Origin: Gemmatimonadales bacterium
GTDB lineage: Bacteria > Gemmatimonadota > Gemmatimonadetes > Gemmatimonadales > GWC2-71-9
Length of the DNA stretch: 64,000 nucleotides
Assembly (NCBI GenBank): GCA_050733215.1
Contig: JBOHSN010000001.1
Location: 1,487-65,486 of the forward strand
Direction: 5' to 3'
Below the pieces are notes generated by a model. That model was not told the DNA's origin. It saw only the letters and a program-made list of their open reading frames with translations, and ran no database searches. Positions within the stretch are counted from its first letter, which is position 1. The number at the start of each line of letters is the position of its first letter. A program made the translations under genes and the position numbers. Of this stretch, positions 6,916 through 50,267 are shown piece by piece.

Positions 6916-7040
6916 CTATCCGCTATCGGCTGTCCGCTATCCGCTCGCTCGGCAGCCGCTCGGTTCGCGCAGCGGAGCGACGCGTGCATGCAGTCGCGGA
7001 TAGCGGATAGCGGATAGCGGATAGCCGATAGCCGATAGCG
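6916..7040. repeat. hairpin with heptad-repeat arms (TATCCGC units versus GCGGATA/GCCGATA units)
   Basis: Left arm has 4 heptads (6917..6944) and right arm 6 heptads (6996..7037). It sits exactly between two convergent stop codons (TAG 6913..6915 and CTA 7047..7049). Confidence 0.9.
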
Positions 7041-7046
7041 GAGAAG

Positions 7047-8677: not shown

Positions 8678-8804
8678 TTCACACGGAGGCGCGGAGGACG
8701 CGGAGAACTGCCTTGGGTTGTGGTCTCACGCTCGGGCATCCGGATTATCGGTCATGAGACCACTTCAAGTGCAGTTCTCCGCGTCCTCCGCGCCTCCGTG
8801 TGAA
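8678..8804. repeat. nested long hairpin with a 34-bp perfect stem built of CGCGGAGG-like 8-mers
   Basis: TTCACACGGAGGCGCGGAGGACGCGGAGAACTGC (8678..8711) is the exact reverse complement of 8771..8804. There is an inner 9-bp stem, GTGGTCTCA (8720..8728) / TGAGACCAC (8755..8763). It lies between the egtA-like stop (8809) and the TPR gene start. Confidence 0.9.
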
Positions 8805-8808
8805 CACC

Positions 8809-10065
8809 TCAGGCCGCGATGGCGGTGCTGCTGACGTCGTCCGCAGGAGACAGCGCGCGCCGGGTGTAGCGGTCGTAGAACGCACGGGCTTCGTCCAGGT
8901 GCGCCGGGTGCACGAAGCTGGTGCCGAGGGCGCGACAGCCGCCGAGCGCGATCTCGAACAGCGCATCCGCCGTCCGCGCGATCGCCGGATCGCGCAGGCC
9001 GTCGCGGCCCGCGTGCTCCAGCAGCGCCGGGTCGGGCGCGGGCACCAGATCGAGCGCCGCGCGCGAGGCGTGCGGATCGTATGCGAGGCCTGCGAGAAAC
9101 GCGATCGGCGCCGCATACCAGGCCGGATCTACGGCATCGGCCGAGCGCACCTCGCAGTGTCCGCGCGGGCGCACCTCGGGGAAGAGCGTCGAGAGATGCG
9201 TCTCCCACTCGTCCAGCAAAGGGTTGGCGCGAACCAGCCACTCGCCGAACGGCAGACAGGAGCCGCCTACGGTCGGGAGCAGGATCGCCGGGGCGGCGAG
9301 GGCGAAGTCGAGATACGCCTGCGCCGGCCGGGCGCCGTCGAACGGCAGGCCCGTGCGCCGCGGATCGAGCCGGCGCCACGCGTGCGCCCGGAAGCTCTGG
9401 TGGCCCGTGGGGCTCCCCGCGTACACCGGCGAGCTCGCGAAGATGGCCGTCACGTACGGCGCGATCGCGTTCAGCAGGCGCCACCGCGCCCTCGGCTCGT
9501 CGTCGAAGTCGAGGCTGACCTGGATGGACGCGGTCTGCCGCATCATCACGCCGCCGAAGGGGCTGATGGTCGCGAAATGCTCCGCCATCCGGTGATACCG
9601 TTTGCTGTCGAACAGCAGCGGAGCGTCGGCCTGGCTGTTGTGGGGGTCGATCCCGCTGGACAGCAGCTCGATCCCCTCGGCGCCGGCTGCGGCCCGAAGC
9701 GGGAGCACCACAGAGCGGAGCCGGTTCACCAGCGCGGTCACCGAGCGGCTCGGTGGCGCGGCGTACTCGATCTGTCCGCCGGGCTCGAAGCCGATCGTCC
9801 CGCCGCCGCGCACGAGGAAGCACGGCACGCCCTTCGGCGTGCAGGTCTCGCCCCAACCCTGCCGGGCGGCGAAGCGCCGGAGGAACGGCAGAATGGCCGG
9901 GCCGCTCTCACCCCCGAGCGGCAGCCGCCGGCCGCTCGCGGCGTCCAGCGGGATCAGCTCGACCTCCGCCCCGATCCGCCGCGGGGTCAGCGATGCCATC
10001 GCCGGGGCCGTGAAGATGCTGCCCTCCAGATGCGCGAGCAGGTCGCAGCGCGAAAGGCGCCTCAT
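8809..10065 (-). CDS. egtA: glutamate-cysteine ligase family protein (EgtA-like, GCS2 family)
   Basis: 418 aa with GAEVELIPL, GFEPGGQIEYAAPP and LSTLFPEVRPRGHCEVRSADA, typical of the GCS2/EgtA family. Its ATG overlaps the egtD stop (ATGA). Confidence 0.8.
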   Translation of the reverse strand: MRRLSRCDLLAHLEGSIFTAPAMASLTPRRIGAEVELIPLDAASGRRLPLGGESGPAILPFLRRFAARQGWGETCTPKGVPCFLVRGGGTIGFEPGGQIEYAAPPSRSVTALVNRLRSVVLPLRAAAGAEGIELLSSGIDPHNSQADAPLLFDSKRYHRMAEHFATISPFGGVMMRQTASIQVSLDFDDEPRARWRLLNAIAPYVTAIFASSPVYAGSPTGHQSFRAHAWRRLDPRRTGLPFDGARPAQAYLDFALAAPAILLPTVGGSCLPFGEWLVRANPLLDEWETHLSTLFPEVRPRGHCEVRSADAVDPAWYAAPIAFLAGLAYDPHASRAALDLVPAPDPALLEHAGRDGLRDPAIARTADALFEIALGGCRALGTSFVHPAHLDEARAFYDRYTRRALSPADDVSSTAIAA

Positions 10066-15978: not shown

Positions 15979-17196
15979 CTACTTCCTCCCGTCGATCTCG
16001 GTCAGCTCGACGCTGATGATGTTCTCGTTGGCCCGGCGCACTGCCTCGAGCGCATCGGCGCCGGGACCCGCGTCGAGATGGATGCGCGCCAGCGTCGCGT
16101 GCGCGCCGTGATAGATGATGTTCTCGACTTCCTCGACGTTGATCGTGCGGTCGGCGAGGATACGGAACACGTCCGCCAGCACGCCGGGGCGGTTCTTGTG
16201 CCGCACCGCGAGGATGTGCGTGGCGGCACTCTTGGCCAGGCGATTCACGCAGTTGGGGACGCTGCCCTCCTGGATGAACTCGTGCACGATCCGGACGACC
16301 TCGTGCGCGATGGCCACCTGCGCCTGCTCGGTGGACGCGCCCACGTGGTGGGTGCCGTACACGCCCGGCTGCTTCGCCAGGGCGCTGTCCCAGGACCCGC
16401 TTCCGCCGGCCGGCTCGTTCTGGAAGACGTCGAGCCCGGCCCGGATGCCCTTCTCCTTGACGGCGGCCGCGAGCGCCGCCTCGTCCACCACGGTGCCGCG
16501 AGCCGTATTGATGAGATACGCGCCCGGCTTCATCGCCGCCAGGAACTCGGCGTTCACCAGTTGCTTGGTCTCGGCATTCGCCGCGACGTTGATGGAGACC
16601 GCGTCGCTCACGCGGGCGACCTCGAGCGGCGTCTGGCAGTAGCGGAGTCCCAGCCGGTCCGCCTCCTCGTGGGTGAGATTGCGCGACCACGCGGCGACGT
16701 GCATCCCGAACGCCTTGGCGCGGCTCGCGATCTCCCGGCCGATCTGGCCGAGCCCCACGATGCCGAAGGTGCGCCCATGCAGGCCGCGTGCCTTGGAGTA
16801 CTCCGCCTTGTTCCACTTGCCCGCGCGGAGATCGGCCACCTGGTCGGGAATGCTGCGGTCGCACGACAGCAGCAGTCCGAGGACCAGCTCGGCGACGGCC
16901 ACCGAGTTCTTTCCGGGACAGTTGGAGACGAAGATGCCGAGGTCCGACGCGGCGTTCACGTCGATGGTGTCGATGCCCGCCCCCGCCCGGATCACCAGCC
17001 CGAGGCTCGCCCCCAACCTGAGCGCCTCCGCGCTCACTTTGGTGCTCCGCACGATCAGGATGTTCGGGTCATGCTGCTTGAGCGCGGCCGGCAGCGTGTC
17101 GGGCGTGAGGTCGGGCTGCGAGAGCACGATACAGCCGAGCTCCTTGAGCCCGTCGATGCCGACCGTCTCGAACTTGTCGGCTATGAGAACCTTCAT
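15979..17196 (-). CDS. serA: D-3-phosphoglycerate dehydrogenase with C-terminal ACT domain
   Basis: 405 aa with GIVGLGQIGREIA (NAD-binding GxGxxG) and a C-terminal ACT-like region (HILAVRHKNRPGVLADVFRIL). Its stop abuts the serC start with a 0-nt gap. Confidence 0.93.
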   Translation of the reverse strand: MKVLIADKFETVGIDGLKELGCIVLSQPDLTPDTLPAALKQHDPNILIVRSTKVSAEALRLGASLGLVIRAGAGIDTIDVNAASDLGIFVSNCPGKNSVAVAELVLGLLLSCDRSIPDQVADLRAGKWNKAEYSKARGLHGRTFGIVGLGQIGREIASRAKAFGMHVAAWSRNLTHEEADRLGLRYCQTPLEVARVSDAVSINVAANAETKQLVNAEFLAAMKPGAYLINTARGTVVDEAALAAAVKEKGIRAGLDVFQNEPAGGSGSWDSALAKQPGVYGTHHVGASTEQAQVAIAHEVVRIVHEFIQEGSVPNCVNRLAKSAATHILAVRHKNRPGVLADVFRILADRTINVEEVENIIYHGAHATLARIHLDAGPGADALEAVRRANENIISVELTEIDGRK

Positions 17197-17298
17197 GGCT
17201 ATCCGCTATCCGCTATCCGCCCGCTCCGCCACCGCTCGTCGGGTCGCGCGGGGCACCAAGCCGCCGCGGAGAGAGCGGATAGCGGATAGCGGATAGCC
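17197..17298. repeat. hairpin with a perfect 24-bp stem of CGCTATC heptads
   Basis: GGCTATCCGCTATCCGCTATCCGC (17197..17220) is the exact reverse complement of 17275..17298, with a 54-nt loop. It fills the whole gap between the DUF1015 stop (17298..17300) and the serA ATG (17196..17194). Confidence 0.95.
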
Positions 17299-18524
17299 TA
17301 GTCCAATTCATGCACAAACAGCCCGCTCCTGAGCTTCGGCTCGAACCACGTGCTCTTCGGCGGCATGATGCCGCCCGCGTCCGACACCGCCATCAGCTGC
17401 TCGACGGTCGTCGGGTACATCGCCACGCCCAGCGCCATCTCGCCCGAGCGCACCCGCCGCTCGAGCTCGCCCGTGCCGCGAATGCCCCCCACGAAGTCGA
17501 TCCGCCTGTCGGTCCGCGGATCGCCGATGCCGAGGAGCGGACTGAGCACCCGGTCCTGCAGCAGGCTCACGTCGAGCGAGCCGATCGGGTCGGCGCGGTC
17601 GATCGAGGACGGATCGAGGGTGAGCCGATGCCAGCGGCGGTCGAAGAACAGGCCGAAGCTGCCCGGCGCCGGTGGCGCTGGGTCCGATACCGCCTCGATC
17701 CGTCCGAGCGTCCGCAGCCGGTCGGCGAATGCCGCGGCCGTGAGACGGTTCAGGTCCTTCGCCAGCCGGTTGTACGGCAGGATCCTGAGCTGGTCCGCAG
17801 GGAAGCTGACCGCGAGAAACCAGTTGTACTCCTCGTCGCCCCGATGCGCCGGGTTGGCGGCCTTGCGCTCCCGGCCCGCGCGCCAGGCGCTGGCGGAACG
17901 GTGGTGCCCGTCGGCCACGTACGCGAGGGGCACCGCGCAGAATGCCCTGACCCACGCGGAAGCATCGGGCACCCGCCAGACCGTGTGACCGACGCCGTCC
18001 GGCGCGGTGAAGTCGTACAGCGGCGGCCCCTGCACGGCGGAGCGCGTCAAGTCGTCGAGCTCGGGTCGCGGACGATACGTGAGCAACACCGGCTCCGCAT
18101 GCGCATTGAGCGTGAGCACGTGCCGCGTCCGATCGTCTTCCTTGTCCTTCCGCGTCTTCTCGTGCTTCCGGATCACGTCGTGCTCGTAGTCGTCCACGTG
18201 CACGCAGCCGACGATCCCCGTCTGCGCCCGGCCATCCATCTCCTGGCGATAAAGCAGCAGGCCGGGCTCCCGCTCCCGCTCCAGCGTGCCGCTGGCGACC
18301 AGGCGGTCGAGCGCGGCCCGCGCAGCGGCGTAGATCCGCGGGTCGTGGGGATCGGTGTCGGCCGGCAGATCGATGTCGGACCGGCCGACGTGGAGGAAGC
18401 TGTGCGGGTTCCCCGCCGCAAGCGCCACCGCCTCGTCCCGGCTCACCACGTCGTACGGCACCGCGGCCACCTGGGCCGCCAGCTCGGGCCGCGGACGCAG
18501 GGCGCGGAACGGGTTCAGGCGCAT
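17298..18524 (-). CDS. DUF1015 family protein
   Basis: MRLNPFRALRPRPELAAQVAAVPYDVVS... and the HEKTRKDKEDDRTRH block are typical of DUF1015. I prefer ATG 18524. An alternative GTG at 18554 overlaps the qor stop (GTGA). Confidence 0.85.
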   Translation of the reverse strand: MRLNPFRALRPRPELAAQVAAVPYDVVSRDEAVALAAGNPHSFLHVGRSDIDLPADTDPHDPRIYAAARAALDRLVASGTLEREREPGLLLYRQEMDGRAQTGIVGCVHVDDYEHDVIRKHEKTRKDKEDDRTRHVLTLNAHAEPVLLTYRPRPELDDLTRSAVQGPPLYDFTAPDGVGHTVWRVPDASAWVRAFCAVPLAYVADGHHRSASAWRAGRERKAANPAHRGDEEYNWFLAVSFPADQLRILPYNRLAKDLNRLTAAAFADRLRTLGRIEAVSDPAPPAPGSFGLFFDRRWHRLTLDPSSIDRADPIGSLDVSLLQDRVLSPLLGIGDPRTDRRIDFVGGIRGTGELERRVRSGEMALGVAMYPTTVEQLMAVSDAGGIMPPKSTWFEPKLRSGLFVHELD

Positions 18525-18550
18525 GGAACCACAAAGTAAGCGGTGACCGC

Positions 18551-19522
18551 TCACCCCGGCAGCAAGAGTACCTTGCCGGCGGTCTTCCGGCTCTCCAGCG
18601 CCCGATGCGCCTCCGCGGCGTCGCGCAGCGGATACTCGTGATCGATCCGCACGCGGAGCGATCCGTCGACGACCCAGCCGAGGAGCTCGGTCGCGCGCGC
18701 GAGCAGCTCGTCGCGCGTCGCGGTGTAGTGGAAGAGCGTGGGACGGGTGACGAAGAGCGAGCCCTTCTGGTTCAGCACCTGGAGATCCACCGGCGGGACC
18801 GGTCCGCTGGATTGGCCGCAGAGCACCATCATCCCGCGGCGCACGAGCAGGTTGAGCCCCTTGTCGAACGTGGTCTTCCCCACCGAGTCGTACACCACCT
18901 GCAGGCCGGCGCTGCCGGTCAGACGCCGGGTCTCGGCTTCGAAATCCTGCTCGGTGTAGATGATGACTTCGTCCGCCCCGGCTTCGCGCGCGAGCCTGGC
19001 CTTCGCTTCGCTGGATACGGTGCCGATCACGCGGGCGCCCCTCCGCTTGGCGACCTGGCAGAGCAGCAGCCCGACGCCGCCGGCAGCGGCATGCACCAGG
19101 CAGGTGTCGCCCGCGCGGAGCGGATACGTGGAGAGCGCCAGGTAGTGCGCCGTGAGACCCTGGAGAAAGACCGCGGCGGCGAGACGCGCGTCCACCCCAT
19201 CCGGCAACCGGACGAGCCGGTCCGCCGGAACCGCGGCGTACTCGGCGTACGCGCCGGGCGGTCCGGTGTACACCACCCGCTCCCCGGGACGCATACTGCT
19301 GACGTCCGGCGCCACCGCCTCCACGATCCCGGCGGCTTCCATCCCGAGGATATACGGAAGCTGAACCTTATAGAGACCGGTTCGGTGGTACACATCGATG
19401 AAGTTGACCCCGCTCGCCTCGATTCGGACCAGCGCCTGCCCGGGTCCCGGGGCGGGCGTTGACACCGCTTCGTACCGCAGCACATCGGGACCGCCGTGCT
19501 CGTGCACTCTGATGGCCCGCAT
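18551..19522 (-). CDS. qor: NADPH:quinone oxidoreductase (zeta-crystallin/MDR family)
   Basis: 323 aa with MRAIRVHEHGGPDVLRYE..., GVNFIDVYHRTGLY and AAAGGVGLL. Confidence 0.9.
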   Translation of the reverse strand: MRAIRVHEHGGPDVLRYEAVSTPAPGPGQALVRIEASGVNFIDVYHRTGLYKVQLPYILGMEAAGIVEAVAPDVSSMRPGERVVYTGPPGAYAEYAAVPADRLVRLPDGVDARLAAAVFLQGLTAHYLALSTYPLRAGDTCLVHAAAGGVGLLLCQVAKRRGARVIGTVSSEAKARLAREAGADEVIIYTEQDFEAETRRLTGSAGLQVVYDSVGKTTFDKGLNLLVRRGMMVLCGQSSGPVPPVDLQVLNQKGSLFVTRPTLFHYTATRDELLARATELLGWVVDGSLRVRIDHEYPLRDAAEAHRALESRKTAGKVLLLPG

Positions 19523-27513: not shown

Positions 27514-28710
27514 ATGGCCCTCCGCCACGGCGTCACCGCAGCGCTCGCGGTCTGCACCCTGCTCGCGCCGCGGCTCCGGGCCCAGGACACCACGGACGTC
27601 GATCTGACCGATCCGCTGGCGGAAGACACGACCTGGACCAATACCGACCTGCCGTGGTCGCTGAGCTATTTCCCCTACCTCACGGGCCTATCAAACGACG
27701 GCCCGCTGATCGCGGGACGGGTGCGCTACTGGAAGCCGGCGCCGTACGAGGACCGTGTCACCGCGAAGGCCGCGCTCGAGCTCAACGCTGGCATCGGCTT
27801 CCGCGGTAGCCGGTTCGTCACCGCCACGGCGACGGTGCCGCGGCTGGGGCATGGCTGGCGTCTCTTCGCGCTTGGCGCCGCGGTACGCGAGGCGCGGTTC
27901 GGCTTCTACGGCCTGGGCAACGAAACCATCAAGGACGAGAGCCTGACGCTGCCGGACAACAAGCTCTATTACCGGGTCCGCCGTCGCACGTACCGCGTCA
28001 GTCTGGACGTCACCCGCCAACTCGCCGGCCCGTTGCACGCGGCGCTCCTCGGAGAGCTCGTATCGGCCAACTACACGGCGCCGGACGACCAGCCCTCGCT
28101 GTTCGACCAGACCTTCGGGCCCGAGCTCGACAACCGGGACGCGTCGCTCCGTGCGGCGCTCGTGTTCGACACGCGCGACAACGAGTACAACACCCTCAAC
28201 GGCCTGTTGCTCGAGGCCGGCGCCCAGGTGGCCACCGGCGGCGGCAACTACGAGCGGGTCTACGGCATCGCGCGCGGCTGGCTCACGCCGCGGGAGGGCA
28301 CGACTCTCGCCGCGCGCATCGCGGGCTCGCAGCTCTACGGCGCGCCGACCCTCGATGCCCGGTTCATCATCCCCGGCTGGGAACGCCCGGTGCTGGTGCT
28401 CGGCGGCAACTACTCACATCGGGGCCTGGACCTGCCGCGGTTCGCGGGCCAGGGCGTGCTGTTCGGCAACTTCGAGGTGCGGCAAGAGGTCTTCGGCTTC
28501 GGCGACCTCGGGGCGATCGGTCTCGTCGGTTTCGTCGACGCCGGGCGGGTCTTCGAGGAGGACAAGTTCCGGCTCACCTTCAACGATCTCAAGGTGGGCG
28601 GCGGCGGCGGCATCGCGATCAGGATCCTGCGGTCCACGATCTTTACCTTCACCGTGGGCCGCGGCCCCGACGGGACCAACATCGATCTCAACGCGGGGTG
28701 GTTCTTCTGA
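27514..28710 (+). CDS. outer-membrane beta-barrel protein (Omp85/surface antigen D15-like barrel)
   Basis: 398 aa with a signal peptide (AVCTLLAPRLRAQ), alternating beta-strand pattern, and the C-terminal DLNAGWFF terminal-aromatic signature of OMPs. Confidence 0.8.
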   Translation: MALRHGVTAALAVCTLLAPRLRAQDTTDVDLTDPLAEDTTWTNTDLPWSLSYFPYLTGLSNDGPLIAGRVRYWKPAPYEDRVTAKAALELNAGIGFRGSRFVTATATVPRLGHGWRLFALGAAVREARFGFYGLGNETIKDESLTLPDNKLYYRVRRRTYRVSLDVTRQLAGPLHAALLGELVSANYTAPDDQPSLFDQTFGPELDNRDASLRAALVFDTRDNEYNTLNGLLLEAGAQVATGGGNYERVYGIARGWLTPREGTTLAARIAGSQLYGAPTLDARFIIPGWERPVLVLGGNYSHRGLDLPRFAGQGVLFGNFEVRQEVFGFGDLGAIGLVGFVDAGRVFEEDKFRLTFNDLKVGGGGGIAIRILRSTIFTFTVGRGPDGTNIDLNAGWFF

Positions 28711-28899
28711 GTCAGCGGTGAGCAGTAAGCAGTGAGCAGTGAGCAGTGAGCAGTGAGCAGTGAGCAGTGAGCAGTGAGCAGTGAGCAGTGAGCAGTGAGC
28801 AGTGAGCAGTGAGCAGTGAGCAGTGAGCAGTAAGCAGGGGGCTCCGATGTACACCGGAGCCTCCTGCTCACCGCTCACCGCTCACCGCTCACCGCTCAC
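28711..28899. repeat. hairpin with strongly expanded heptad arm (18 GTGAGCA-type units versus 5 CGCTCAC units)
   Basis: Left arm 28711..28836 has 18 heptads, 14 of them consecutive perfect GTGAGCA (28732..28829). The loop 28837..28864 is itself a GGCTCCG/CGGAGCC hairpin. Right arm 28865..28899 has 5 heptads. It starts 1 nt after the OMP stop and contains the stop of the thioredoxin-like gene. Confidence 0.95.
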
Positions 28900-29419
28900 C
28901 GTCCCCTCGTCCAGCCGTCGCCAGCACCTCGCGGAGCGTCGTCTCGCCCCTGTCCCGGGCGTACCACTTCCGGATCTCCGGATAGATCTCGGCTTTCGCG
29001 CGACCCCGCCCGAGTTGCTCGATCACCCAAAGCTGCAGGACGCGCGGCCGCGGACCCCAGCGGCCGATCTCCTGGAACTGCTCGTTCAGCGCGATGACGA
29101 TCGGAATCGAGCGCGAGCCGTTGGTCAGATAGCGGTCCATCAGCTCGGGATGCTCGTCGCGCCGGATGAGGCGGAGCTCGACCCCGGGCGCCAGCTCGGC
29201 CAGGCGCGCCAGAACCGGCAGGGTGTTCGACGCATCGCCGCACCAGTCTTCGGCAATGGCCAGGAGCCGGACCCGACCGTGATCCGACGCCGCGACGGCC
29301 CACTCGGGCACCTTCGCCAGGCGGTAGAGCCCTTCCCACAGCCCGCGGTGCTTGAGGTCGCTCGCGGCGACGAAGTCGGCGTAGGGAAGCGCGGCGTTCC
29401 AGAGAGCGGAGAAGTCCAT
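28889..29419 (-). CDS. thioredoxin-fold family protein
   Basis: 176 aa. LLAIAEDWCGDASNTLPVLARLAE and IPIVIALNEQFQEIGRWGPRP are typical of this thioredoxin-like family. The last codons lie in the repeat arm. Confidence 0.8.
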   Translation of the reverse strand: MDFSALWNAALPYADFVAASDLKHRGLWEGLYRLAKVPEWAVAASDHGRVRLLAIAEDWCGDASNTLPVLARLAELAPGVELRLIRRDEHPELMDRYLTNGSRSIPIVIALNEQFQEIGRWGPRPRVLQLWVIEQLGRGRAKAEIYPEIRKWYARDRGETTLREVLATAGRGDGER

Positions 29420-29500: not shown

Positions 29501-30121
29501 ATGTCCCCATCCCCCCGCCGCGACGGCGAGGCCACCCGCCAGCGGCTGCTGCGCGCCGCCCTCGAGTTGTTCACGAGCAACGGGTTTCGCGCCACCACGA
29601 CGCCCGAGATCGCGGAGCGCGCGGGCGTGGCGGAGGGAACCATCTACCGGCATTTCTCCGGCAAGGAGCACCTGCTCAACGAGGTGTTTCGCGCGGCGCA
29701 CCGGTGGGCGTCCGGACTGGTGGCGGAGACCGATGGTCCGCACCCCCCCCAGGAGCGGCTCCAGCGCATCGGCCGGCGGCTGCTCGAGGGCGCGGAGCGA
29801 GACCCGGCGGCGGCGCGAATGGTCCTCCTCACGCGGGACGACCCGCATCTCGACGAGCGGAGCCGCGACGCCGCCCGGGAGTTTCGCGCGTCGCTCCAGC
29901 AGGTGATCGCGGCGGGCAAGTCCGACGGCGTGGTGCGGTCCGGGCCGGCAGAGCTCTGGGCGGCGGTGTGGCTCTCGGTGGTGGCGTTCGCGGCGGAGCG
30001 CGTGGCCGGGCGCGAGTGGACGGCGGAGCAGCCGCAGGCCGGGCAGGTGCTCGAGGCGGCGTGGGATGCGATTCGGGCGGGAGAGGGAGGGAGAGGGCGG
30101 GAGAAGGAGGGAGGGGAATAA
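29501..30121 (+). CDS. TetR/AcrR family transcriptional regulator
   Basis: 206 aa. The HTH reads RLLRAALELFTSNGFRATTTPEIAERAGVAEGTIYRHF. The C-terminal tail GEGGRGREKEGGE is encoded by the decamer repeat. Confidence 0.9.
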   Translation: MSPSPRRDGEATRQRLLRAALELFTSNGFRATTTPEIAERAGVAEGTIYRHFSGKEHLLNEVFRAAHRWASGLVAETDGPHPPQERLQRIGRRLLEGAERDPAAARMVLLTRDDPHLDERSRDAAREFRASLQQVIAAGKSDGVVRSGPAELWAAVWLSVVAFAAERVAGREWTAEQPQAGQVLEAAWDAIRAGEGGRGREKEGGE

Positions 30122-30176
30122 CTATGCTGCCCTACCTCTCCCGCCGTCTCCCGCCCCCTCCCGCCCTCGTCTCCCC
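30075..30176. repeat. hairpin with decamer-repeat arms (GGCGGGAGAG-type versus CTCTCCCGCC-type)
   Basis: Left arm 30075..30116, loop AATAACTATGCTGCC, right arm 30132..30176. Both convergent stop codons (30119..30121 and 30132..30134) sit at the loop edges, so both arms are translated as protein tails. Confidence 0.9.
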
Positions 30177-30947
30177 CGCAAACGCAGTGAGCTCTCTCGG
30201 ATGTCGCGGCGGCCGGTTCCAGGTCACGCGCCGCGCCCGGCCCGGCCCCGCGGGGCGCACGATCAGCTCGTCGCCCGCAAAGTAGCCCACCGAGTCAGGG
30301 CCCCAGCGCGCCGGGTCGCGCCCCTGATCGGCGATCGCGACCGGAGTGCTGCTGTCCGCCGCGGCGCAGAGCGCCTGCTCGCAGGCGAACACCCGGGCGA
30401 AGGGCGGCTCGCCCACGAACACCCCGAGCGCCGAATCAACCCGCTGCCACTCTTCGGGGGGAACGGCGCGGGCCGGTTCGTCGGTGGGGGGCGCCGGGAT
30501 CGCGTACGCGAATGGGCCGGCGCTCGCGTAGAGCACGCGCCCGTCGCGCCCCCAGCCGATTGCCTGGACCTCCGCTTCGGCCGGCAGCTCCATCCGGCGT
30601 TCCGCTCCCGTCAGCAGGTTGATCACCCAGGGCGTGCGGGCGAGCGTATCGTCGATCCCGCGCCCGCGCAGAAACGCCACCATGAACCCGTTTGGCGACA
30701 GTGCCGGCCGGGCCTCGCGGACCGGCGTGAACGTGATCTGAAAGACCGGGCCGCCGTCGGCCCGCACCCCGAAGAGGTCGCCCACACCGGCGGGATCATC
30801 CGCGATGAAGACGGCGTAGGCGTCGCGCCCTACCACGGCGTGGCGGCGGAGCGGTGAGACGGTTCCGCCGCAGGCTATGGCCACGGTGAGAGGTAAGACG
30901 TGAGCGGTGAGCGGGACCCAACGTGTCCAGAGCGTCTTACCTCTCAC
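30132..30947 (-). CDS. lipoprotein, TolB/PD40-like beta-propeller fragment family
   Basis: 271 aa. The signal peptide and lipobox read MRGKTLWTRWVPLTAHVLPLTVAIACGG. ALSPNGFMVAFLRG resembles PD40 repeats. GTG start at 30947. Confidence 0.7.
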   Translation of the reverse strand: MRGKTLWTRWVPLTAHVLPLTVAIACGGTVSPLRRHAVVGRDAYAVFIADDPAGVGDLFGVRADGGPVFQITFTPVREARPALSPNGFMVAFLRGRGIDDTLARTPWVINLLTGAERRMELPAEAEVQAIGWGRDGRVLYASAGPFAYAIPAPPTDEPARAVPPEEWQRVDSALGVFVGEPPFARVFACEQALCAAADSSTPVAIADQGRDPARWGPDSVGYFAGDELIVRPAGPGRARRVTWNRPPRHPRELTAFAGETRAGGGGRRRER

Positions 30948-30961
30948 CTCTCACCTCTGAC
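30886..30961. repeat. hairpin of GTGAGAG/GTAAGAC/GTGAGCG heptads with a 14-bp perfect stem
   Basis: GTGAGAGGTAAGAC (30886..30899) is the exact reverse complement of 30934..30947. The stem contains the M1 peptidase stop (30937..30939) and the GTG start (30945..30947) of the lipoprotein gene. Confidence 0.9.
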
Positions 30962-32541
30962 CTGAGAAGCCACCAGCCGGCCGGGTCCACCTCCAGCTTC
31001 GAGGGCGGGCGGGAGAACCCGCGGAGCGTGCGGCGCGTGCTCCGTCCGCTCACGTCCAGGGGGAAGTCCTTGCCGTCGATCCGGATCACGAGCCCCGGCA
31101 GGCGGTAGGTGCCCCAGGCCGGCGGCTGCGTCTGGCGGACGTCGATGTCGATCCGGTTGCCCTGATGACGCCACCGCACGTCGAGGATCGGGTATCCGGG
31201 CTGCGTCAGCGCCTGCCGGAAGTACCAGTCGAGATCCCGGCCGGCGGCCTTGGCGGCGGCCTTGGCGAAGTCGGACGAGACGGCGGTGCCGTGCCGATAC
31301 ACGCGATAGTACTCGCGAAGCGCGCCGCCAAACGCCGAGTCGCCGATCATGCCGCGCAGCTGGTGCAGGATCCAGGCGCCCTTCTCATACGCGTTGTCGT
31401 TGAGCAGAGAATCGGGATCGGCGACCCCGGGGTCGATCACGGGCCGCTCGACATCACGCGACGCGAAGTACTGCTCGGCCCCCTGGCGCATGGTCGCCGA
31501 ACGGGCCGGCAGGCCGCCGGTTTCCTCCGCCCACATGGCCGCGAGGTAGGTGGCGAAGCCCTCGGACAGCCAGAGGTGGTGCCAGTCGTCGGGGGTCACC
31601 GCGTCGCCGAACCACTGGTGTGCCGTCTCGTGCGCGACGGTGCGCTCCTCCAGCCGGCCGGCGTGGAGCACGCTGTCGTTGTAGAAGATCGCGGTGGCGT
31701 TCTCCATGCCGCTGAACCGCGTCGCAGCCTGGACATGGGCCAACGAGCCGTAGGGGAACGGGCCGACGAGCCGCGTGAAGTAGTCCACCATGGCTCCGGC
31801 GCGCCGGAACGGCCCCGCGGCCGCCCTCGCTGAATCGGCCGGGTCGGTCCAGAGCGACACCGGCACGCAGCGCGCGGGACAGCCGGCCGCGCCCAGCCGC
31901 GTGACGGCGAACCTGCCGATGCCGATCACGATCGAGTAGGTGGGAATCGGCTCGTTCAGGCGATAGTGCCAGAGCCGGTGGTCGTACGGCAGCGTGTCGA
32001 TCGTTTCGAGCGTGCCGTTGGCGATCACCTGCACGCCCGCGGGCACCTGCACGTGGAAGGCGACCGTCGCCTTGTCGGAGGGATGGTCCTGCACCGGCAG
32101 CCAACCGTGCGCGTGGTCGGGCCAGTTGTCGGCGAACACGCGAAGCCCGGCCGGACCCGGCCGGAACACCAGCCCGTCGCGCACTTCACCGCGATACCGG
32201 ACCCGGGTGGAGAGCGTGTCGCCCGCGCGCGCCTCGTGCGGTACGGCGAGCTGTTCGCCGCGGCGGAACCACATTGTGCGAACCAGGCGGGTGTTCTCGC
32301 GGCCGTTCACCAGCACGCGGATGACGCGGAGCGCGGAGTCGAGCCGCAGCTCCACCGGCTCGCTGGAGGCGAGCCGCCAACTCACGTCGGTCTGGCCCAG
32401 CACGTGGCGGCCGGTGTCGCCGAGCACCAGGCTCACGTCGTAGTGCGTGACGTCGTGCGGAAGACGCGTGGTGTCCGGCCGCACCGCGAGCGGCGAGACT
32501 GCCGCGGCGGTCTGAAGCAGAAGCCCGGGGATGGTGAGCAT
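30937..32541 (-). CDS. M1 family aminopeptidase
   Basis: 534 aa with GMENATAIF, HETAHQWFGD (HExxH) and WLSEGFATY. Confidence 0.92.
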   Translation of the reverse strand: MLTIPGLLLQTAAAVSPLAVRPDTTRLPHDVTHYDVSLVLGDTGRHVLGQTDVSWRLASSEPVELRLDSALRVIRVLVNGRENTRLVRTMWFRRGEQLAVPHEARAGDTLSTRVRYRGEVRDGLVFRPGPAGLRVFADNWPDHAHGWLPVQDHPSDKATVAFHVQVPAGVQVIANGTLETIDTLPYDHRLWHYRLNEPIPTYSIVIGIGRFAVTRLGAAGCPARCVPVSLWTDPADSARAAAGPFRRAGAMVDYFTRLVGPFPYGSLAHVQAATRFSGMENATAIFYNDSVLHAGRLEERTVAHETAHQWFGDAVTPDDWHHLWLSEGFATYLAAMWAEETGGLPARSATMRQGAEQYFASRDVERPVIDPGVADPDSLLNDNAYEKGAWILHQLRGMIGDSAFGGALREYYRVYRHGTAVSSDFAKAAAKAAGRDLDWYFRQALTQPGYPILDVRWRHQGNRIDIDVRQTQPPAWGTYRLPGLVIRIDGKDFPLDVSGRSTRRTLRGFSRPPSKLEVDPAGWWLLRSEVRGER

Positions 32542-32550
32542 TGTTTGAAA

Positions 32551-32676
32551 GTAAGCAGTGAGCGGTAAGCAGTGAGCGGTGAGCGGTGAGCGGTAAGGGG
32601 AACGCGCTGAGACCGGCGCGCCCTAACGAAGCCCTCGCACCGCTCACCGCTCACTGCTTACCGCTCACCCCTCACT
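32551..32676. repeat. hairpin with GTRAGCR heptad arms (7 versus 5 units)
   Basis: Left arm 32551..32599 and right arm 32641..32675. The DLH stop (32672..32674) lies in the last heptad. The M1 ATG is 9 nt from the left arm. Confidence 0.92.
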
Positions 32677-33460: not shown

Positions 33461-34425
33461 ATCTCGACCCGGCCCTCCATCAAGAGCGGCACGGCGGCGC
33501 GCCGCCGCTTCGCGTCCCAGCCGAGGTCCGCGGGCGACGGCACTCCGCCGGTGAGCCGGGTGACGCGTCCGCCTTCGACGACGTTCAAGCTCGAGTCGGT
33601 CCACGAGGTGACGAGGAGGCGTCCGTTGCCGATCGGCTCGACACCATCGTGCTGTCCCTTACCCTTGGCCAGGGGCTGCAACGCGCTGTCGCCGGGGGCC
33701 CACCGCACCATCTGCTGACCGAAGAACGGCACTACCACGAAGGAGCGCCCGGCCGAGTCCCACGTAATGCCGTTCGGGGCGGCGAGGCTGGTGTCCTGGA
33801 GCGCGACCGTGGCCTTGCGGTCGGCACCGATGCGGTAGATGCGGTCCGGACCTGGGTGCCCCATCCCGGTCTTGGGATCGACGCCGAGTCCGGTGTCGGT
33901 GAGGTAGAGGGCGCCGTCGGGGCCCACCGCCACGTCGTTGAGGAACTTGGCGCCGCGCACGTTGACGGCCGCGACCGGCGCGCCGGTCCTGCGGCTGAAC
34001 CCGCGCACCGCGTCGATGTCGGCCACCCAGAGCGTGTCGCCGGCGATCGCCATGCCCTTGGGCGCGTTGAGCACCGCACCGCCGCGTCCCCCCGCGATGA
34101 ACTTCACCGAATCAGGGCTGCCATCGCCCTTGTACCGGCCGATCACGCCGTTGTTGTCCTTGCCGAGCGGCGAGACCTCGCCCTCGCCGAAGCTGGCGAC
34201 GTACCACACGTCGAGCTCCGGATCGTACCGGACCGCCTCGGCCGCGTTCACCTTGATCTCGCCGACCTTCTTCGGCGCCGCGGCGGTCACGGCGGGATCA
34301 CCGGCCGCCGTGTCGGCGTGGCCGGCCTGGTCGGGCGGAGGCCGATCGCAACCTATTGCGAGTGTAAGTGTGAGTGCGAGTGTGAGTGGCAGGGCCATCG
34401 GGGCTGGGCGGGGTCGGTATGTCAT
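33445..34425 (-). CDS. beta-propeller lipoprotein (SMP-30/gluconolactonase/LRE-like or NHL-like)
   Basis: ATG 34425 gives MTYRPRPAPMALPLTLALTLTLAIGC (lipobox). Repeats include NAPKGMAIAGDTLWVADI and LNDVAVGPDGALYLTDTG. Confidence 0.78.
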   Translation of the reverse strand: MTYRPRPAPMALPLTLALTLTLAIGCDRPPPDQAGHADTAAGDPAVTAAAPKKVGEIKVNAAEAVRYDPELDVWYVASFGEGEVSPLGKDNNGVIGRYKGDGSPDSVKFIAGGRGGAVLNAPKGMAIAGDTLWVADIDAVRGFSRRTGAPVAAVNVRGAKFLNDVAVGPDGALYLTDTGLGVDPKTGMGHPGPDRIYRIGADRKATVALQDTSLAAPNGITWDSAGRSFVVVPFFGQQMVRWAPGDSALQPLAKGKGQHDGVEPIGNGRLLVTSWTDSSLNVVEGGRVTRLTGGVPSPADLGWDAKRRRAAVPLLMEGRVEIWEVP

Positions 34426-34487
34426 ACATCGATCTCCGGTTCGTTGTGATACGCACTCGCACGCACACTCACACTCGCACTCACTCC
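34357..34487. repeat. hairpin with hexamer-repeat arms (TGYGAG versus CRCACT units), 19-bp perfect core
   Basis: GTGAGTGCGAGTGTGAGTG (34370..34388) is the exact reverse complement of 34466..34484. The 77-nt loop holds the lipoprotein ATG. The right arm holds the ParB-like stop (34481..34483). The left arm encodes LTLALTLTL of the signal peptide. Confidence 0.9.
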
Positions 34488-37358: not shown

Positions 37359-39215
<1,857 letters not shown>

Positions 39216-46295: not shown

Positions 46296-47386
46296 GCGGA
46301 GGAGGCGAGGAGCAGAAGGGCAGATGGGGCGGCAGTTCTGCTCGTCTGCTCCTCTGCTCATCTGTTCTTCTTGGGTTCGCCTGCGGCGGGGACACCGGAC
46401 CGAACGGACCGGGACCGCGAACCTACCGCATGGGCTTCTCGGGCATCCCGCCCCGCCCCGACCAGTCCGCCGTTCTCCCGACCGTCGACCAGTGGGCGTC
46501 GCGGGCCGACGCAGCGATCCTGCACATCTCTCCGCCGTGGAGCGCGCTGCTGGCGGGTACCGCCGCTGATGCCGCCGTTCGCGCCCTGCACCTCGCCCTG
46601 GTGGAGCACTACCGGAGCAGGGGCCTCGCCGTCGTCGTCACGCTGGACGCGACCGACGGGCTCAACCGCGCCGCGGAGGCGCCCGAGCTGGTCGCTCTGG
46701 GGCGGAGCATCAGCGAGCCCGCCGTCCAGCAGGCGTATCGGGGGTACGCGGTCGCGCTCGCGACCATTCTCGCTCCCGATTTCCTGGGCCTGGCGGCCGA
46801 AACCGACCTGATCCGCCTGGTGGCGCCACCCGCGCTGTACGCGGCGCTGGTGGCGATGGTGAACGATGCCGCCGCTGACGTGCGTGCCGGGGCGCCCGCG
46901 GTCCCGCTGTACGTCAGCGTGCAGGCGGAGGTGGCGTGGGGGCGGCAGCAGCCGACGCCTGCGTACATCGGTGTCACGCAGGATCTCGCCGACTTCCCGT
47001 TCGTGCAGGCACTCGGGATCTCGTCGTATCCGTATCTGGGCGGCTTCGCGGACCCGAAGGAGGTGCCGCTCGACTACTACGCGCGGCTGGGCGAGGACGG
47101 GTCGCTGCCCCTGCTCGTGGTGGAGGGAGGATGGCCGTCGGTGACGGTCGGCGCCGCCGAGTCGAGCCCCGAGGAGCAGGCGCGCTGGATCGATCGGCAG
47201 GTGGCGCTGCTCGACGCGGCCGGGGTGGACGCCGTCTTTCAGCTCACCTTCGCGGACTTGGACGAACCGGGCGGCTGGCCGGTGGGCATCGCTCCGTTCG
47301 CGAGACTCGGCCTGGTGGACCCGGCCTTCAACCCGAAGCCCGCGCTGGCGCGCTGGGACGCCGCGTTCACCCGTGTCCGGCAATGA
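46292..47386 (+). CDS. lipoprotein, clan GH-A (GH17-like) TIM-barrel glycoside hydrolase-like
   Basis: ATG 46292 gives a signal peptide with lipobox LLGFACGG. LLVVEGGWPS resembles the E-x-GWPS nucleophile motif of GH17-type glucanases. Confidence 0.7.
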   Translation: MSGGGEEQKGRWGGSSARLLLCSSVLLGFACGGDTGPNGPGPRTYRMGFSGIPPRPDQSAVLPTVDQWASRADAAILHISPPWSALLAGTAADAAVRALHLALVEHYRSRGLAVVVTLDATDGLNRAAEAPELVALGRSISEPAVQQAYRGYAVALATILAPDFLGLAAETDLIRLVAPPALYAALVAMVNDAAADVRAGAPAVPLYVSVQAEVAWGRQQPTPAYIGVTQDLADFPFVQALGISSYPYLGGFADPKEVPLDYYARLGEDGSLPLLVVEGGWPSVTVGAAESSPEEQARWIDRQVALLDAAGVDAVFQLTFADLDEPGGWPVGIAPFARLGLVDPAFNPKPALARWDAAFTRVRQ

Positions 47387-48038: not shown

Positions 48039-48119
48039 GTGAGCGGTGAGCGGTAAGCGGTGAGCAGTGAGCGGGTTCTCGGACGCGGTCCCGCTTACCG
48101 CTTACCGCTCACCGCTCAC
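48039..48119. repeat. hairpin with GTRAGCR heptad arms (5 versus 4 units)
   Basis: Left arm 48039..48073 and right arm 48092..48119. It lies 2 nt from the pdxH ATG (48036) and 3 nt from the M24 stop (48123). Confidence 0.92.
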
Positions 48120-48122
48120 TCC

Positions 48123-49502
48123 TCAGTGAATAAGGTGGAGCTCGGTCTGCCGCTGATACGCCCACCGCGGTACGCCGTCGGGACCCATCACCATGTCCTC
48201 CTCCTGCGGCATTCGCACCCGCTGGCCATTCCACTCGGGGATCGCCGATGTGGCCTGGAGCTCGATCGAGTACCACATCGTGGGGATCACCTTGTGATCG
48301 CCGCGCCCGGGCACTCCCTCCTGATAGTCCCAGAGGCCGATGAGCGGCCCCGAGCCGTGCCCGTGCAACCCGATCGGGTGTGAGTAGATCGTGCCGTCGA
48401 TGCCTGCTTTCGCCAGGCGGGCCCGGGAGGAGGCGAGGATCTGGTTCCCCGTGCGCCCCGGCCGGACCTCCTCCATCAGGATGTCCTGCATCCGGTTGGA
48501 GCGGGCGAGCGCCTTCCTGATCCCCTCGGGCGCGTCCCGCTCGTCCTCGCGCAGCACGTAGGCGAGGTGCTGGATGTCGGTATTGAGCCGAAGCGCGGTG
48601 ATGCCGACGTCGCAGTGCAGCACGTCGCCCCGCTCGATGATCGGGTCGTCGCCGAGCTGCTCGTCGGTGGCGCCCTTCCGCTGCACGTCCACCGACGGCT
48701 GGAACCAGGTGCCGAGCCCCATGTCGTTCACCGCCTGGCGGAAGTACCAGGCGAGATCGCTGGTGCGAGTAACGCCGGGCTTCACGATGCGGTCGGAGAA
48801 CATCGTGTCGATCACCGCCCAGGTGACCTTCGCGAGATCGTTGTAGAAGCGCTGCTCGTCGGGCAGGCGCGCCGCGAGCAGGTCCACGGCGAGACCCTCC
48901 GCGCGCTTGAAGCGCTTGGTCCAGCGGGGCCCGAGCGCCTGGCGCATCCCGCCGTACTCGCCCGCGGTGAGCCCATCGGCAAACGCGAACGTGCGCGAGA
49001 TGTTCACACCGATGACCTTGGGCCGCCGGGTCTCGATGACTTCCTTCAGCACCTCCCATTGCTGGTCACCCCAGAGCTCCGCCTGCCGCCCCGCCACCGC
49101 GGCCTCGACCCGCTTGGTGCTCCGCACCGCGCGGTACACGCCCCCCTGCGAGCTGCCGCCCAGCGCGATACGCTCGATGCCGGCCTCGGGCCCGCGGTCC
49201 CAGAACACGTAGATGGTGCGGCGCCGGGCCGCGAACGTCGTGGGCGACACCAGGGCCTTGAAGAGCGGATCCTCGGCGTACTCCCGCATGGGGATCACCC
49301 ACATGTCGATCCCGTACTGGCGCATGAGGCCGGGCAGGATGCTGTCCATCCGGGTCTGGAGCCAGAGCTGCTCGCGATCGGCCTGCTGGCGGAGCGTGCC
49401 GAACGGGCGAGACTGGGCGGACAGGCGGGCCGGCGGGCTGGCGGGCAGGGCGGCCGCGGCGAGGGCGAGGCCCAGCACAACGCGGCGGAGTTGTATGAGC
49501 AT
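48123..49502 (-). CDS. M24 family metallopeptidase (Xaa-Pro aminopeptidase-like), secreted
   Basis: ATG 49502 gives MLIQLRRVVLGLALAAAALPASPPARLSAQ (signal peptide). Metal-ligand blocks are VLHCDVG, HPIGLHGHG and SIELQA. Confidence 0.88.
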   Translation of the reverse strand: MLIQLRRVVLGLALAAAALPASPPARLSAQSRPFGTLRQQADREQLWLQTRMDSILPGLMRQYGIDMWVIPMREYAEDPLFKALVSPTTFAARRRTIYVFWDRGPEAGIERIALGGSSQGGVYRAVRSTKRVEAAVAGRQAELWGDQQWEVLKEVIETRRPKVIGVNISRTFAFADGLTAGEYGGMRQALGPRWTKRFKRAEGLAVDLLAARLPDEQRFYNDLAKVTWAVIDTMFSDRIVKPGVTRTSDLAWYFRQAVNDMGLGTWFQPSVDVQRKGATDEQLGDDPIIERGDVLHCDVGITALRLNTDIQHLAYVLREDERDAPEGIRKALARSNRMQDILMEEVRPGRTGNQILASSRARLAKAGIDGTIYSHPIGLHGHGSGPLIGLWDYQEGVPGRGDHKVIPTMWYSIELQATSAIPEWNGQRVRMPQEEDMVMGPDGVPRWAYQRQTELHLIH

Positions 49503-49513
49503 GCGGGAAAATA

Positions 49514-49630
49514 GGCGGGAGAGGGAGGGAGAGGGCGGGAGAGGGCGGGAGTGGGCGCGCGAGGGCGGGAGTGGCCGTTCAGCCCGCTCCCGCCTGGTCC
49601 CGCCCGTTCCCACCCACTCCCGCCTGCTCC
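49514..49630. repeat. hairpin with decamer-repeat arms (GGCGGGAGAG-type, 6 versus ~5 units)
   Basis: Left arm 49514..49573 and right arm 49583..49630. The SufU-like stop (49579..49581) is in the loop, and the SufU tail AAEEQAGVGGNGRDQAGAG is encoded by the right arm. The M24 ATG is 12 nt from the left arm. Confidence 0.9.
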
Positions 49631-50144: not shown

Positions 50145-50267
50145 GCTAATAGCTATCCGCTATCCGCTATCCGCTATCCGCTATCCGCTGGTGCTTGCCC
50201 GGCATCGCGATGCCAGCAACGCCTCGGCGGATAGCGGATAGCGGATAGCCGACGACCGATAGCCGAC
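50145..50267. repeat. hairpin with TATCCGC/GCGGATA heptad arms (5 versus 3 plus degenerate units)
   Basis: Left arm 50154..50188 has 5 perfect TATCCGC units. The loop contains the 14-bp palindrome GGCATCGCGATGCC. The right arm 50227..50267 has 3 GCGGATA units plus a degenerate GCCGACGACCGATAGCCGAC stretch. It lies between the rhodanese stop (50270) and the SufU-like ATG (50136). Confidence 0.92.

Follow-up and report, generated by a model that had tools for sequence, protein, structure and literature searches.

What is to be made of a hairpin whose two arms are so unequal that most of one of them has nothing to pair with? The question is raised by a stretch of 64,000 nucleotides from a Gemmatimonadales bacterium (GenBank assembly GCA_050733215.1, contig JBOHSN010000001.1), which we call the window, where positions 28711-28899 hold a run of 18 seven-nucleotide units (heptads) facing, across a short structured centre, only five. 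This element lies between the convergent genes of an Omp85-like outer-membrane protein and of a thioredoxin-like (Trx-like) protein. The initial annotation of the sequence dealt with it as a single locus. A reading of it as an isolated oddity has to be abandoned: the window contains 11 such elements, and 35 more are found in 1.18 Mb of other Gemmatimonadales loci. We argue that 28711-28899 belongs to a lineage-wide Gemmatimonadales family of imperfect palindromes, abutting stop codons and with arms made of tandem units, and that one of its arms has recently expanded as a variable-number tandem repeat (VNTR). We give these two statements, taken together, a probability of about 0.7.

Reading heptads from position 28711 onwards yields the 18 units against five, with 14 perfect GTGAGCA in a row, that had first drawn attention, and Tandem Repeats Finder (TRF) agrees, giving 18.3 copies in the left arm (95% matches, score 228) and 5.1 in the right arm (100% matches, score 72). 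The loop, again as first described, is a perfect 7-bp mini-hairpin: GGCTCCG at 28840-28846 pairs with CGGAGCC at 28855-28861 around the 8-nt loop ATGTACAC. It stacks on the heptad stem, and the centre of which it is part is unlike that of any other element. The heptads had been called complementary, and this needs qualification: the five right-arm units do face the left arm, but the complementarity of the arms is 86-89%, not exact. Read on the minus strand the right arm is (GTGAGCG)n, four of its five units being GTGAGCG as reverse complement, while the left-arm unit is GTGAGCA. Because GTGAGCA thus faces the partner of GTGAGCG, RNA of the plus strand has an A.C mismatch per heptad; the same difference makes a G.U wobble per heptad in RNA of the minus strand, for which an almost unbroken helix of about 50 bp is predicted.

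Folded as RNA in both orientations, as the initial annotation had proposed, the element makes a strong structure on each strand, of -108.3 kcal/mol on the plus strand (z = -9.1) and -114.0 kcal/mol on the minus strand (z = -10.4), with none of 200 dinucleotide shuffles as good in either case. In the left arm, pairing involves the innermost four to five units and the outermost one, so that about 13 units are in surplus. Can the stem slide along this surplus, as had been supposed? With DNA energy parameters it can, the reference base of the short arm being distributed over at least five registers at 6-30% each (30, 24, 28, 7 and 6% on the minus strand), whereas with RNA parameters a single register, the innermost, holds 97-99%. 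The 18/5 ratio is the most extreme arm asymmetry in our sample of paired elements, the other asymmetric members having 13.4/6.7, 11.1/4.1, 13.7/4.4, 8.5/4.9 and 3.3/10.9 units.

Both neighbouring genes end at the element, in the manner noted at the outset. The TGA of the Omp85-like gene occupies 28708-28710 and the first heptad starts at the very next base, while the right arm contains the stop of the Trx-like gene (28889-28891) together with its last four codons. From this arrangement, seven not being a multiple of three, it had been concluded that gain or loss of units would alter the C-terminus of the Trx-like protein. It does not: simulated arms with one to eight CGCTCAC units always gave the same 176-aa product ending in GDGER, because the stop falls in the second unit and every GTGAGCG unit carries a TGA, and the frame opened in rebuilt arms only on complete loss of these units. 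A change in copy number is silent for both flanking proteins, since the unit contains TGA and a period of seven brings it into all three frames within 21 nt. The expectation that this C-terminus varies among homologues was nevertheless borne out. Past a conserved ...EVLxAAG, the tail differs in sequence and in length, from 1 to 18 residues, and in some homologues it is literally an arm translated, such as VSSKQ (from GTAAGCAGTAAGCAGTGA) or VSGEGEQ. Over evolutionary time the arm thus shapes the end of the protein, though not via slippage. The convergent pairing of the two genes is itself conserved across Gemmatimonadales.

If slippage leaves the proteins untouched, has it nonetheless occurred? 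A contig of GCA_973835775.1, 99.97% identical to the window over 7.3 kb, has 11 perfect units in its left arm where the window has 14, the variant units on either side and the centre being unchanged, and in a relative with a 93% identical Trx-like protein the arms have four and five units, which agrees with the recent slippage expansion originally proposed. The element at 50152-50266 tells a similar story: it has six GGATAGC units in GCA_973835775.1 and five in the window, another contig of that assembly starting in the centre of this element and showing one substitution in 3.6 kb. Unit-number polymorphism in related strains, another expectation of the initial annotation, is thus found at two loci of genomes that are otherwise 99.8-100% identical, in a comparison made at the level of assemblies. 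On this sequence comparison, the 14-unit GTGAGCA block behaves as a hypervariable VNTR. A third assembly, GCA_975101925.1, has a contig (L002) that ends in the centre of the 28711-28899 element, all five right-arm units being identical to those of the window. As four of the five short-read contig ends that we examined lie inside family elements (L001, L002, L094, L095), these loci fragment short-read assemblies.

The family was delineated in two steps of different breadth. In the window, elements were retrieved from the TRF table as pairs of arrays with complementary units, the second array following the first at 10-71 nt. All 11 hairpins have arms of tandem 6-10-nt units and reach or enclose a stop codon; divergent gaps have none of them. 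The ten others have stems of 30-50 bp and unique centres, often with a small hairpin of their own; heptads predominate among their units, alongside one hexamer, one 9-mer and two 10-mers. Between co-directional genes the element takes up the entire gap, the next start codon coming 2-16 nt after the stem. Homologues and 80 related genome loci bear Gemmatimonadales names, and the genome is accordingly a metagenome-assembled genome of this order. A paired-array detector was then run over the window and 82 related loci (1.24 Mb in total), returning 47 elements, 46 after removal of the L001 duplicate of the 28711-28899 locus. Among the 47, 36 have period 7 and seven have period 8 (35 of 46 are of period 7 in the non-redundant set). 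A long open reading frame (ORF) with a skewed GC content at third codon positions ends at or in 36 of the 46 elements, and in all 11 of the window. Paired arrays make up about 70 of the 140 period-7 arrays of the sample, the pairing of two arrays being the very criterion by which elements were detected.

Several rules emerge from this collection. The first concerns the units themselves: 34 of 35 heptad units carry TGA, TAG or TAA on one strand, as against 21% of genomic 7-mers (binomial p about 1e-22, not corrected for orthology), and, seven and three being coprime, such arrays have stops in all three frames within 21 nt. The commonest forms are GTRARMR and GCTATCS, 21 of the 35 units matching GT[GA]A[GA][CA][GA]. 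The second rule is one of polarity. Elements of the GTRA type invariably run 5'-(GTRAnnn)n...(nnnTYAC)n-3', the stop-bearing arm leading, and those of the GCTATCC type invariably run 5'-(GCTATCC)n...(GGATAGC)n-3'; since a hairpin is its own reverse complement, this polarity is intrinsic and not an artefact of orientation. The third is recurrence without copying: within 64 kb, GTRAGCR units are found at four unlinked loci and GGATAGC units at three, while the centres share nothing, no two elements are copies of one another, and the heptads are not over-represented outside the elements.

At the orthologous Omp85/Trx junction, the picture is one of turnover. Where the Trx-like protein is 93% identical (L089-91), GTRAGCA x4 faces five units of the TGTTCAC type across a short loop, AAGGGGGCCC, identical in three samples, and the mini-hairpin of the window is absent. 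Further relatives carry CTCGACA units (L092, 90% identity), hexamers (L098, 85%), GAGTTAC units (L003, 83%), GTGAGCG against CTGCTCA in 4 versus 6 units (L096, 80%) or 8-mers (L012, L024 and L034, 66-70%). In most species-level orthologues the two stops are 0-30 nt apart and there is no repeat; the element is missing at this site from L004, L005, L097 and most other loci, and in L097, fully syntenic and with a Trx-like protein 83% identical, the two genes overlap by 4 nt. In the initial annotation, orthologous loci devoid of repeats would have made this an isolated event; most are indeed devoid of them, but other lineages acquired hairpins with different units independently, and the genome is rich in elements. 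The element is thus dispensable here and turns over quickly, yet the site is colonised again and again. Across the 20.5-kb locus of L097, syntenic throughout, not one clean repeat-armed hairpin occurs, and all that is left after the gene of the M1 peptidase is a degenerate heptad hairpin, so that the density of elements, at 11 per 64 kb in the window, differs sharply between close lineages.

This M1-peptidase gene, which ends in ...GTGAnnnGTGAnnnGTAAnnn..., offers a very different evolutionary record. Of the 37 genomes carrying the gene, many have a counterpart of the element that follows it in the window (30884-30963), and this element is kept across genomes in which neighbouring proteins are only about 57-66% identical. 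Positions 1-4 of the unit (GTRA) are fixed, while positions 5-7 vary by lineage (GAA, ACG, ACA, GCG, GAG) with matching changes in the opposite arm (GAA/TTC, ACG/CGT, GCG/CGC), around a centre that ranges from 15 to about 130 nt. The arms thus show that pairing is preserved, which either selection or copying from arm to arm would be able to explain.

How might such structures arise, and what might they do? In the account that we favour, replication slippage would have expanded one unit variant of the left arm, the opposite arm not having followed, hence 18 units against five, whereas over evolution the arms would be held complementary by selection for pairing or by template switching from one to the other. 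The paired part would then behave as a hairpin at the 3' end of transcripts, akin to repetitive extragenic palindromic (REP) sequences or to sequences of the short tandemly repeated repetitive (STRR) kind, blocking exonucleases or attenuating convergent read-through, and the roughly 13 surplus units would be functionally neutral. We propose this role between the Omp85-like and thioredoxin-like genes tentatively, at somewhat less than even odds.

A series of observations indeed weighs against one part or another of this account. No U-tract follows the stem on either strand, the 15 nt after it having three T on the plus strand and one on the minus strand; a scan with sigma-70 promoter and U-tract terminator consensus sequences gave no site at the element, and Rfam 15, at gathering threshold, had no match at any element. 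Where just one side of an element has a gene (23 cases), greater stability belongs to the sense strand in 8 and to the antisense strand in 15, which is no sign of selection on the sense RNA. Efficient termination is unlikely where a co-directional start codon follows so closely on the stem. Most orthologous Omp85/Trx junctions lack any hairpin, and the element is therefore dispensable at this site. The difference between 11 and 14 units comes from assemblies and not from reads, the contig with 11 units stopping inside the right arm. Finally, slippage in situ does not explain why the same units appear with the same polarity at unlinked loci, a recurrence that neither a 3'-end role nor neutral drift accounts for. 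As for the minus-strand G.U pairs at 28711-28899, we do not count them as evidence, because four of the five are one unit copied and the mismatch in the centre favours the plus strand. We also considered that the surplus units, as a C-rich (UGCUCAC)13 on the minus-strand transcript, might load Rho, and rejected this candidate, the placement of the long arm relative to the upstream gene being inconsistent among the other asymmetric members.

Would it then be simpler to deny the hairpins any function? They might be a by-product made at the level of DNA: any short palindrome at the end of a gene could gain tandem units by slippage, out-of-register pairing and template switching would transfer these to the opposite arm, and the arrays would then expand, drift and decay neutrally, with none but stop-bearing units tolerated beside genes. 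The rarity of the element at orthologous sites, the fast turnover of unit type at a single site, the contrast in density with L097 (essentially none in its syntenic 20 kb), the absence of a sense-strand bias and the many registers predicted for single-stranded DNA all fit this explanation, and the enrichment in stop triplets fits purifying selection acting as a filter. Although it is the main rival, we find it rather unlikely: the M1-peptidase element persists despite the divergence of its neighbours, with the GTRA phase fixed and compensatory changes in the arms; units recur with fixed polarity at unlinked loci; and elements are kept out of divergent promoter gaps.

These same features leave room for a bolder conjecture, which we consider improbable, namely that Gemmatimonadales possess a dedicated, hitherto undescribed system capping gene 3' ends with 5'-(GTRAnnn)n-centre-(nnnTYAC)n-3' palindromes. 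A sequence-specific activity may make, extend or homogenise the arms, or a protein may read GTRA at a period of 7 bp, three such units being equal to two helical turns. If this were true, the 14-unit block would capture that activity at one moment, and not ordinary slippage of a polymerase. We leave this idea open because of the fixed polarity, the near-universal stop triplets, the recurrence at unlinked loci with unique centres and the conservation across genera, with compensatory changes, after the M1-peptidase gene.

A repeat whose unit number differs between near-identical genomes (11/14, and 6/5 elsewhere, both from assemblies) invites comparison with contingency or phase-variation loci, as does the position of the array, which adjoins one stop codon and encloses the other. 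That unit number would tune expression of the Omp85-like or Trx-like gene, or change the Trx-like C-terminus, is however very unlikely: the translation products are the same for any number of units of one or more, the array is 3' of both genes, outside promoter, 5' untranslated region (5'-UTR) and reading frame, and the same architecture follows housekeeping genes (M1 peptidase, M24 peptidase, NifU), classical contingency genes being typically those of surface components or of restriction systems. Of equally slight probability is a mobile or copied element, such as a MITE (a transposable element of miniature size with inverted repeats), a REPIN (a hairpin made of paired REPs) or a bacterial interspersed mosaic element (BIME), inserted at the junction and spread by a transposase or an enzyme similar to the REP-associated tyrosine transposases (RAYTs). 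Recurrence of the same units and polarity at unlinked loci of one genome (GGATAGC three times, GTRAGCR four) and patchy presence among relatives would suit it. Yet each centre is unique, arm length differs at each locus, several unit types occupy one orthologous site, and inspection of the sequence around 28711-28901 revealed neither target-site duplication nor terminal tag; we dropped this interpretation on account of the unique centres and the lack of heptad enrichment outside the elements. That the asymmetry is an artefact of assembly, with an inflated 14-unit block or a collapsed right arm, is hardly credible: family loci are hard to assemble, as the contig ends show, and two assemblies differ in unit number (11 against 14), but both independently have a long left array of at least 11 perfect units with identical variant units and centre, L002 independently shows the right arm with its five units and the beginning of the centre, and similar asymmetries are seen in other genomes, including contigs of long-read metagenome-assembled genomes (MAGs).

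Which known sequences do these elements resemble? Heptamers are the most abundant of the longer classes of simple sequence repeats (SSRs) in prokaryotes, yet how identical units spread, and what they do, is unknown (PMC4679880, PMC4692102). The closest counterparts are GGGAATC in Xanthomonas and GGGGAYT in Nostoc, dispersed over many intergenic loci (Rehm et al. 2015, PMC4692102). They favour co-directional or convergent gaps, 0-50 bp from a stop codon or overlapping it, and are rare between divergent ORFs; each genome has 70-75 pairs of convergently oriented arrays, potential stem-loops, and perfect arrays reach at most 14 units (PMC4692102). The likeness is clear: 7-nt units in at least three tandem copies, a position at stop codons, avoidance of divergent gaps. 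The differences are no less so. The Xanthomonas/Nostoc unit is G-rich, forms G-quadruplexes and has no stop triplet, while the Gemmatimonadota elements have GTRARMR or GCTATCS units, bearing stops in 34 of 35 cases, with several unit families per genome and in another phylum; the GTGAGCA unit has none of the G-tracts that define the G-quadruplex class.

Cyanobacterial STRR sequences, reportedly first described by Mazel et al. in 1990 and Vioque in 1997, can also form hairpins, either near the 3' end of the gene that precedes them or between genes transcribed together. They are 7-bp tandem units found genome-wide in intergenic hairpins, for example at hupS-hupL, and their function is unknown, with proposals that include transcript stability, translational coupling and termination (PMC2670836). 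Their units and their phylum are different, their arrays are mostly described as direct, and, as far as literature searches show, no stop-triplet content, polarity rule or co-varying arms at orthologous sites have been reported for them. Stop-bearing heptamers do exist in marine Beggiatoaceae, where TAACTGA units occupy well over a hundred intergenic loci and are of unexplained origin (PMC4679880); these repeats are direct ones that lie just upstream of start codons, only one inverted case being reported, whereas the present arrays are paired, inverted and located at stops. The homogenisation of inverted-repeat arms by template switching, on which one branch of our mechanism relies, is described in two further papers (PMC8604942, PMC7202029).

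The REP and BIME sequences of enterobacteria and pseudomonads are likewise extragenic palindromes that abound inside operons and at the 3' ends of genes, and roles in protection of mRNA 3' ends and in attenuation are proposed for them, as is a regulatory role for those close to stop codons. REPs are conserved 20-40-bp palindromes of shared sequence, with a GTAG or CGTC tag, RAYT transposases and non-tandem arms, while the elements discussed here have unique centres, VNTR-like tandem arms and no visible tag. Of what characterises MITEs, we found no near-identical copies, no shared centres and no duplication flanking 28711-28901. Rho-independent terminators, bidirectional ones included, share with our elements a GC-rich hairpin right after stops and between convergent genes, but have a U-tract and a stem of 5-15 bp and not 40-50 bp; in our co-directional pairs the next start codon also comes within 2-16 nt. 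Contingency loci of Haemophilus and Neisseria also rest on slippage-prone repeats whose unit number differs in near-identical genomes; the present array, 3' of both genes and translationally silent, is in neither promoter, 5'-UTR nor ORF.

Searching the literature returned no description of such elements in Gemmatimonadota, an absence that is not proof of absence. Compared with the known heptamers, what sets these elements apart is the combination of units that do not form G-quadruplexes and almost always bear stops, several unit families, fixed polarity, compensatory conservation at orthologous sites, and the phylum. The lineage is informative in that it presents paired hairpins abutting stops together with an orthologous series of no element, short arms, long arms and arms of different units. 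Compensatory evolution of arms can be measured there, one member is caught in the middle of its expansion, and the contest between slippage and template switching, as well as a 3'-end function of the RNA, becomes directly testable. There are practical consequences too: the elements break short-read MAG assemblies of Gemmatimonadales, and they shape the C-termini annotated for the neighbouring proteins, the tails of which are translated from arms. Coordinates are collected in Table 1.

Table 1. Parts of the 28711-28899 hairpin, its flanking genes and the other repeat-armed hairpins, in positions of the 64-kb window.
Feature	Positions	Strand	Remarks
Omp85-like outer-membrane protein gene, 398 aa	27514-28710	+	ends ...NAGWFF; ORF list; Pfam PF01103 (weak) on identical product
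Left arm, 18 heptads	28711-28836		order: GTCAGCG, GTGAGCA, GTAAGCA, 14 x GTGAGCA, GTAAGCA
Block of 14 perfect GTGAGCA	28732-28829		apparently the recently expanded, polymorphic part
Centre GGGGGCTCCGATGTACACCGGAGCCTCC, 28 nt	28837-28864		GGG-GGCTCCG-ATGTACAC-CGGAGCC-TCC
Right arm	28865-28899 (28865-28901 with trailing CG)		TGCTCAC + 4 x CGCTCAC
Thioredoxin_9-family gene, 176 aa	28889-29419	-	ORF list, homologues
e1, (GCTATCC)4.4 ... (GGATAGC)6.7	6915-7042		fills gap between two convergent genes
e2, 9-mer arms	8684-8798		11 nt past stop of gene 8809-10065 (-)
e3, GCTATCC/GGATAGC arms	17198-17297		whole gap from stop of 17298-18554 (-) to start of 15979-17196 (-)
e5, 10-mer GGGAGRGGGC arms	30075-30168		between convergent TetR and Tricorn_N-like genes; both stops inside arms
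e6, GTGAGAG/GTGAGCG arms	30884-30963		M1-peptidase stop inside arm; orthologous element in many Gemmatimonadales
e7, GTRAGCR arms, about 6 vs 5 units	32551-32675
e8, hexamer GAGTGT/CACTCA arms	34360-34484
e9, GTGAGCG arms	48039-48125		from M24-peptidase stop to PNPOx start (3 nt)
e10, 10-mer GGCGGGAGAG arms	49514-49630
e11, GCTATCC/GGATAGC arms	50152-50266		5 units; 6 in GCA_973835775.1

Some minor observations deserve mention. Elements e5 and e10 are the only ones of the window rich in G-tracts, with purine-only 10-nt units (GGGAGRGGGC) opposite pyrimidine-only arms; judging from this composition, they could form a G-quadruplex or a triplex (H-DNA) besides hairpins. Close to e5, the L002 contig (1-1902) parts company with the window (from 30060 onwards). 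The match is perfect from the hairpin centre to 30060, and then come FtsX/ABC-transporter genes, without e5 or the Tricorn_N-like gene; the junction, in the C-terminal region of TetR and 15 nt before e5, has no repeat, and reflects a chimeric join or else a genuine rearrangement. The ORFs of TetR and of the NifU-like protein run through the stop-free proximal arm of their element, so that their annotated C-termini are repeat-encoded. Three arrays are solitary, at 46337-46364 (TCTGCTCA x3.5), 53444-53474 (GAAGAGCG x3.9) and 60625-60669 (6/12-mers): no complementary array lies close to them, and their folding is weak. They could be half-elements or else coding repeats with no relation to the family. 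A look-up of the exact product of 7047-8630 gave no record.

A 20-mer of the mini-hairpin, GCTCCGATGTACACCGGAGC, has six matches in metagenome contigs, none of them at this locus, a number close to what chance would give for such a short word in so large a collection. The contigs are unrelated and of low GC content (among them L085 676-697, L086 1594-1615, L088 6787-6808, L083 5060-5081), and three of these matches are the stem-loop of classical U-tract terminators (aaaaaacc...ggttttt). The single Rfam match of the window is a thiamine pyrophosphate (TPP) riboswitch (RF00059) at 39005-39104 on the minus strand (60.5 bits, E = 2e-9), near the 5' end of the ORF 37359-39176 (-).

Two variations on the M1-peptidase theme complete the survey. 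In L038 (7025-7183), L059 (3689-3881) and L064 (7772-7935) the centre of the hairpin has grown to 60-130 nt, and these centres share a nested GC-rich palindrome, GTCACCCTGAG...CTCAGGGTGAC, as a second structured insert. In three other Gemmatimonadales genomes (L030, L054 and L070) what follows the M1-peptidase gene is another conserved motif, about 30 nt long, GATCCCTCGCTSYGCTCGGGATGA(CAG), present twice in L030, which looks like a REP-like dispersed palindrome standing in place of the heptad hairpin.

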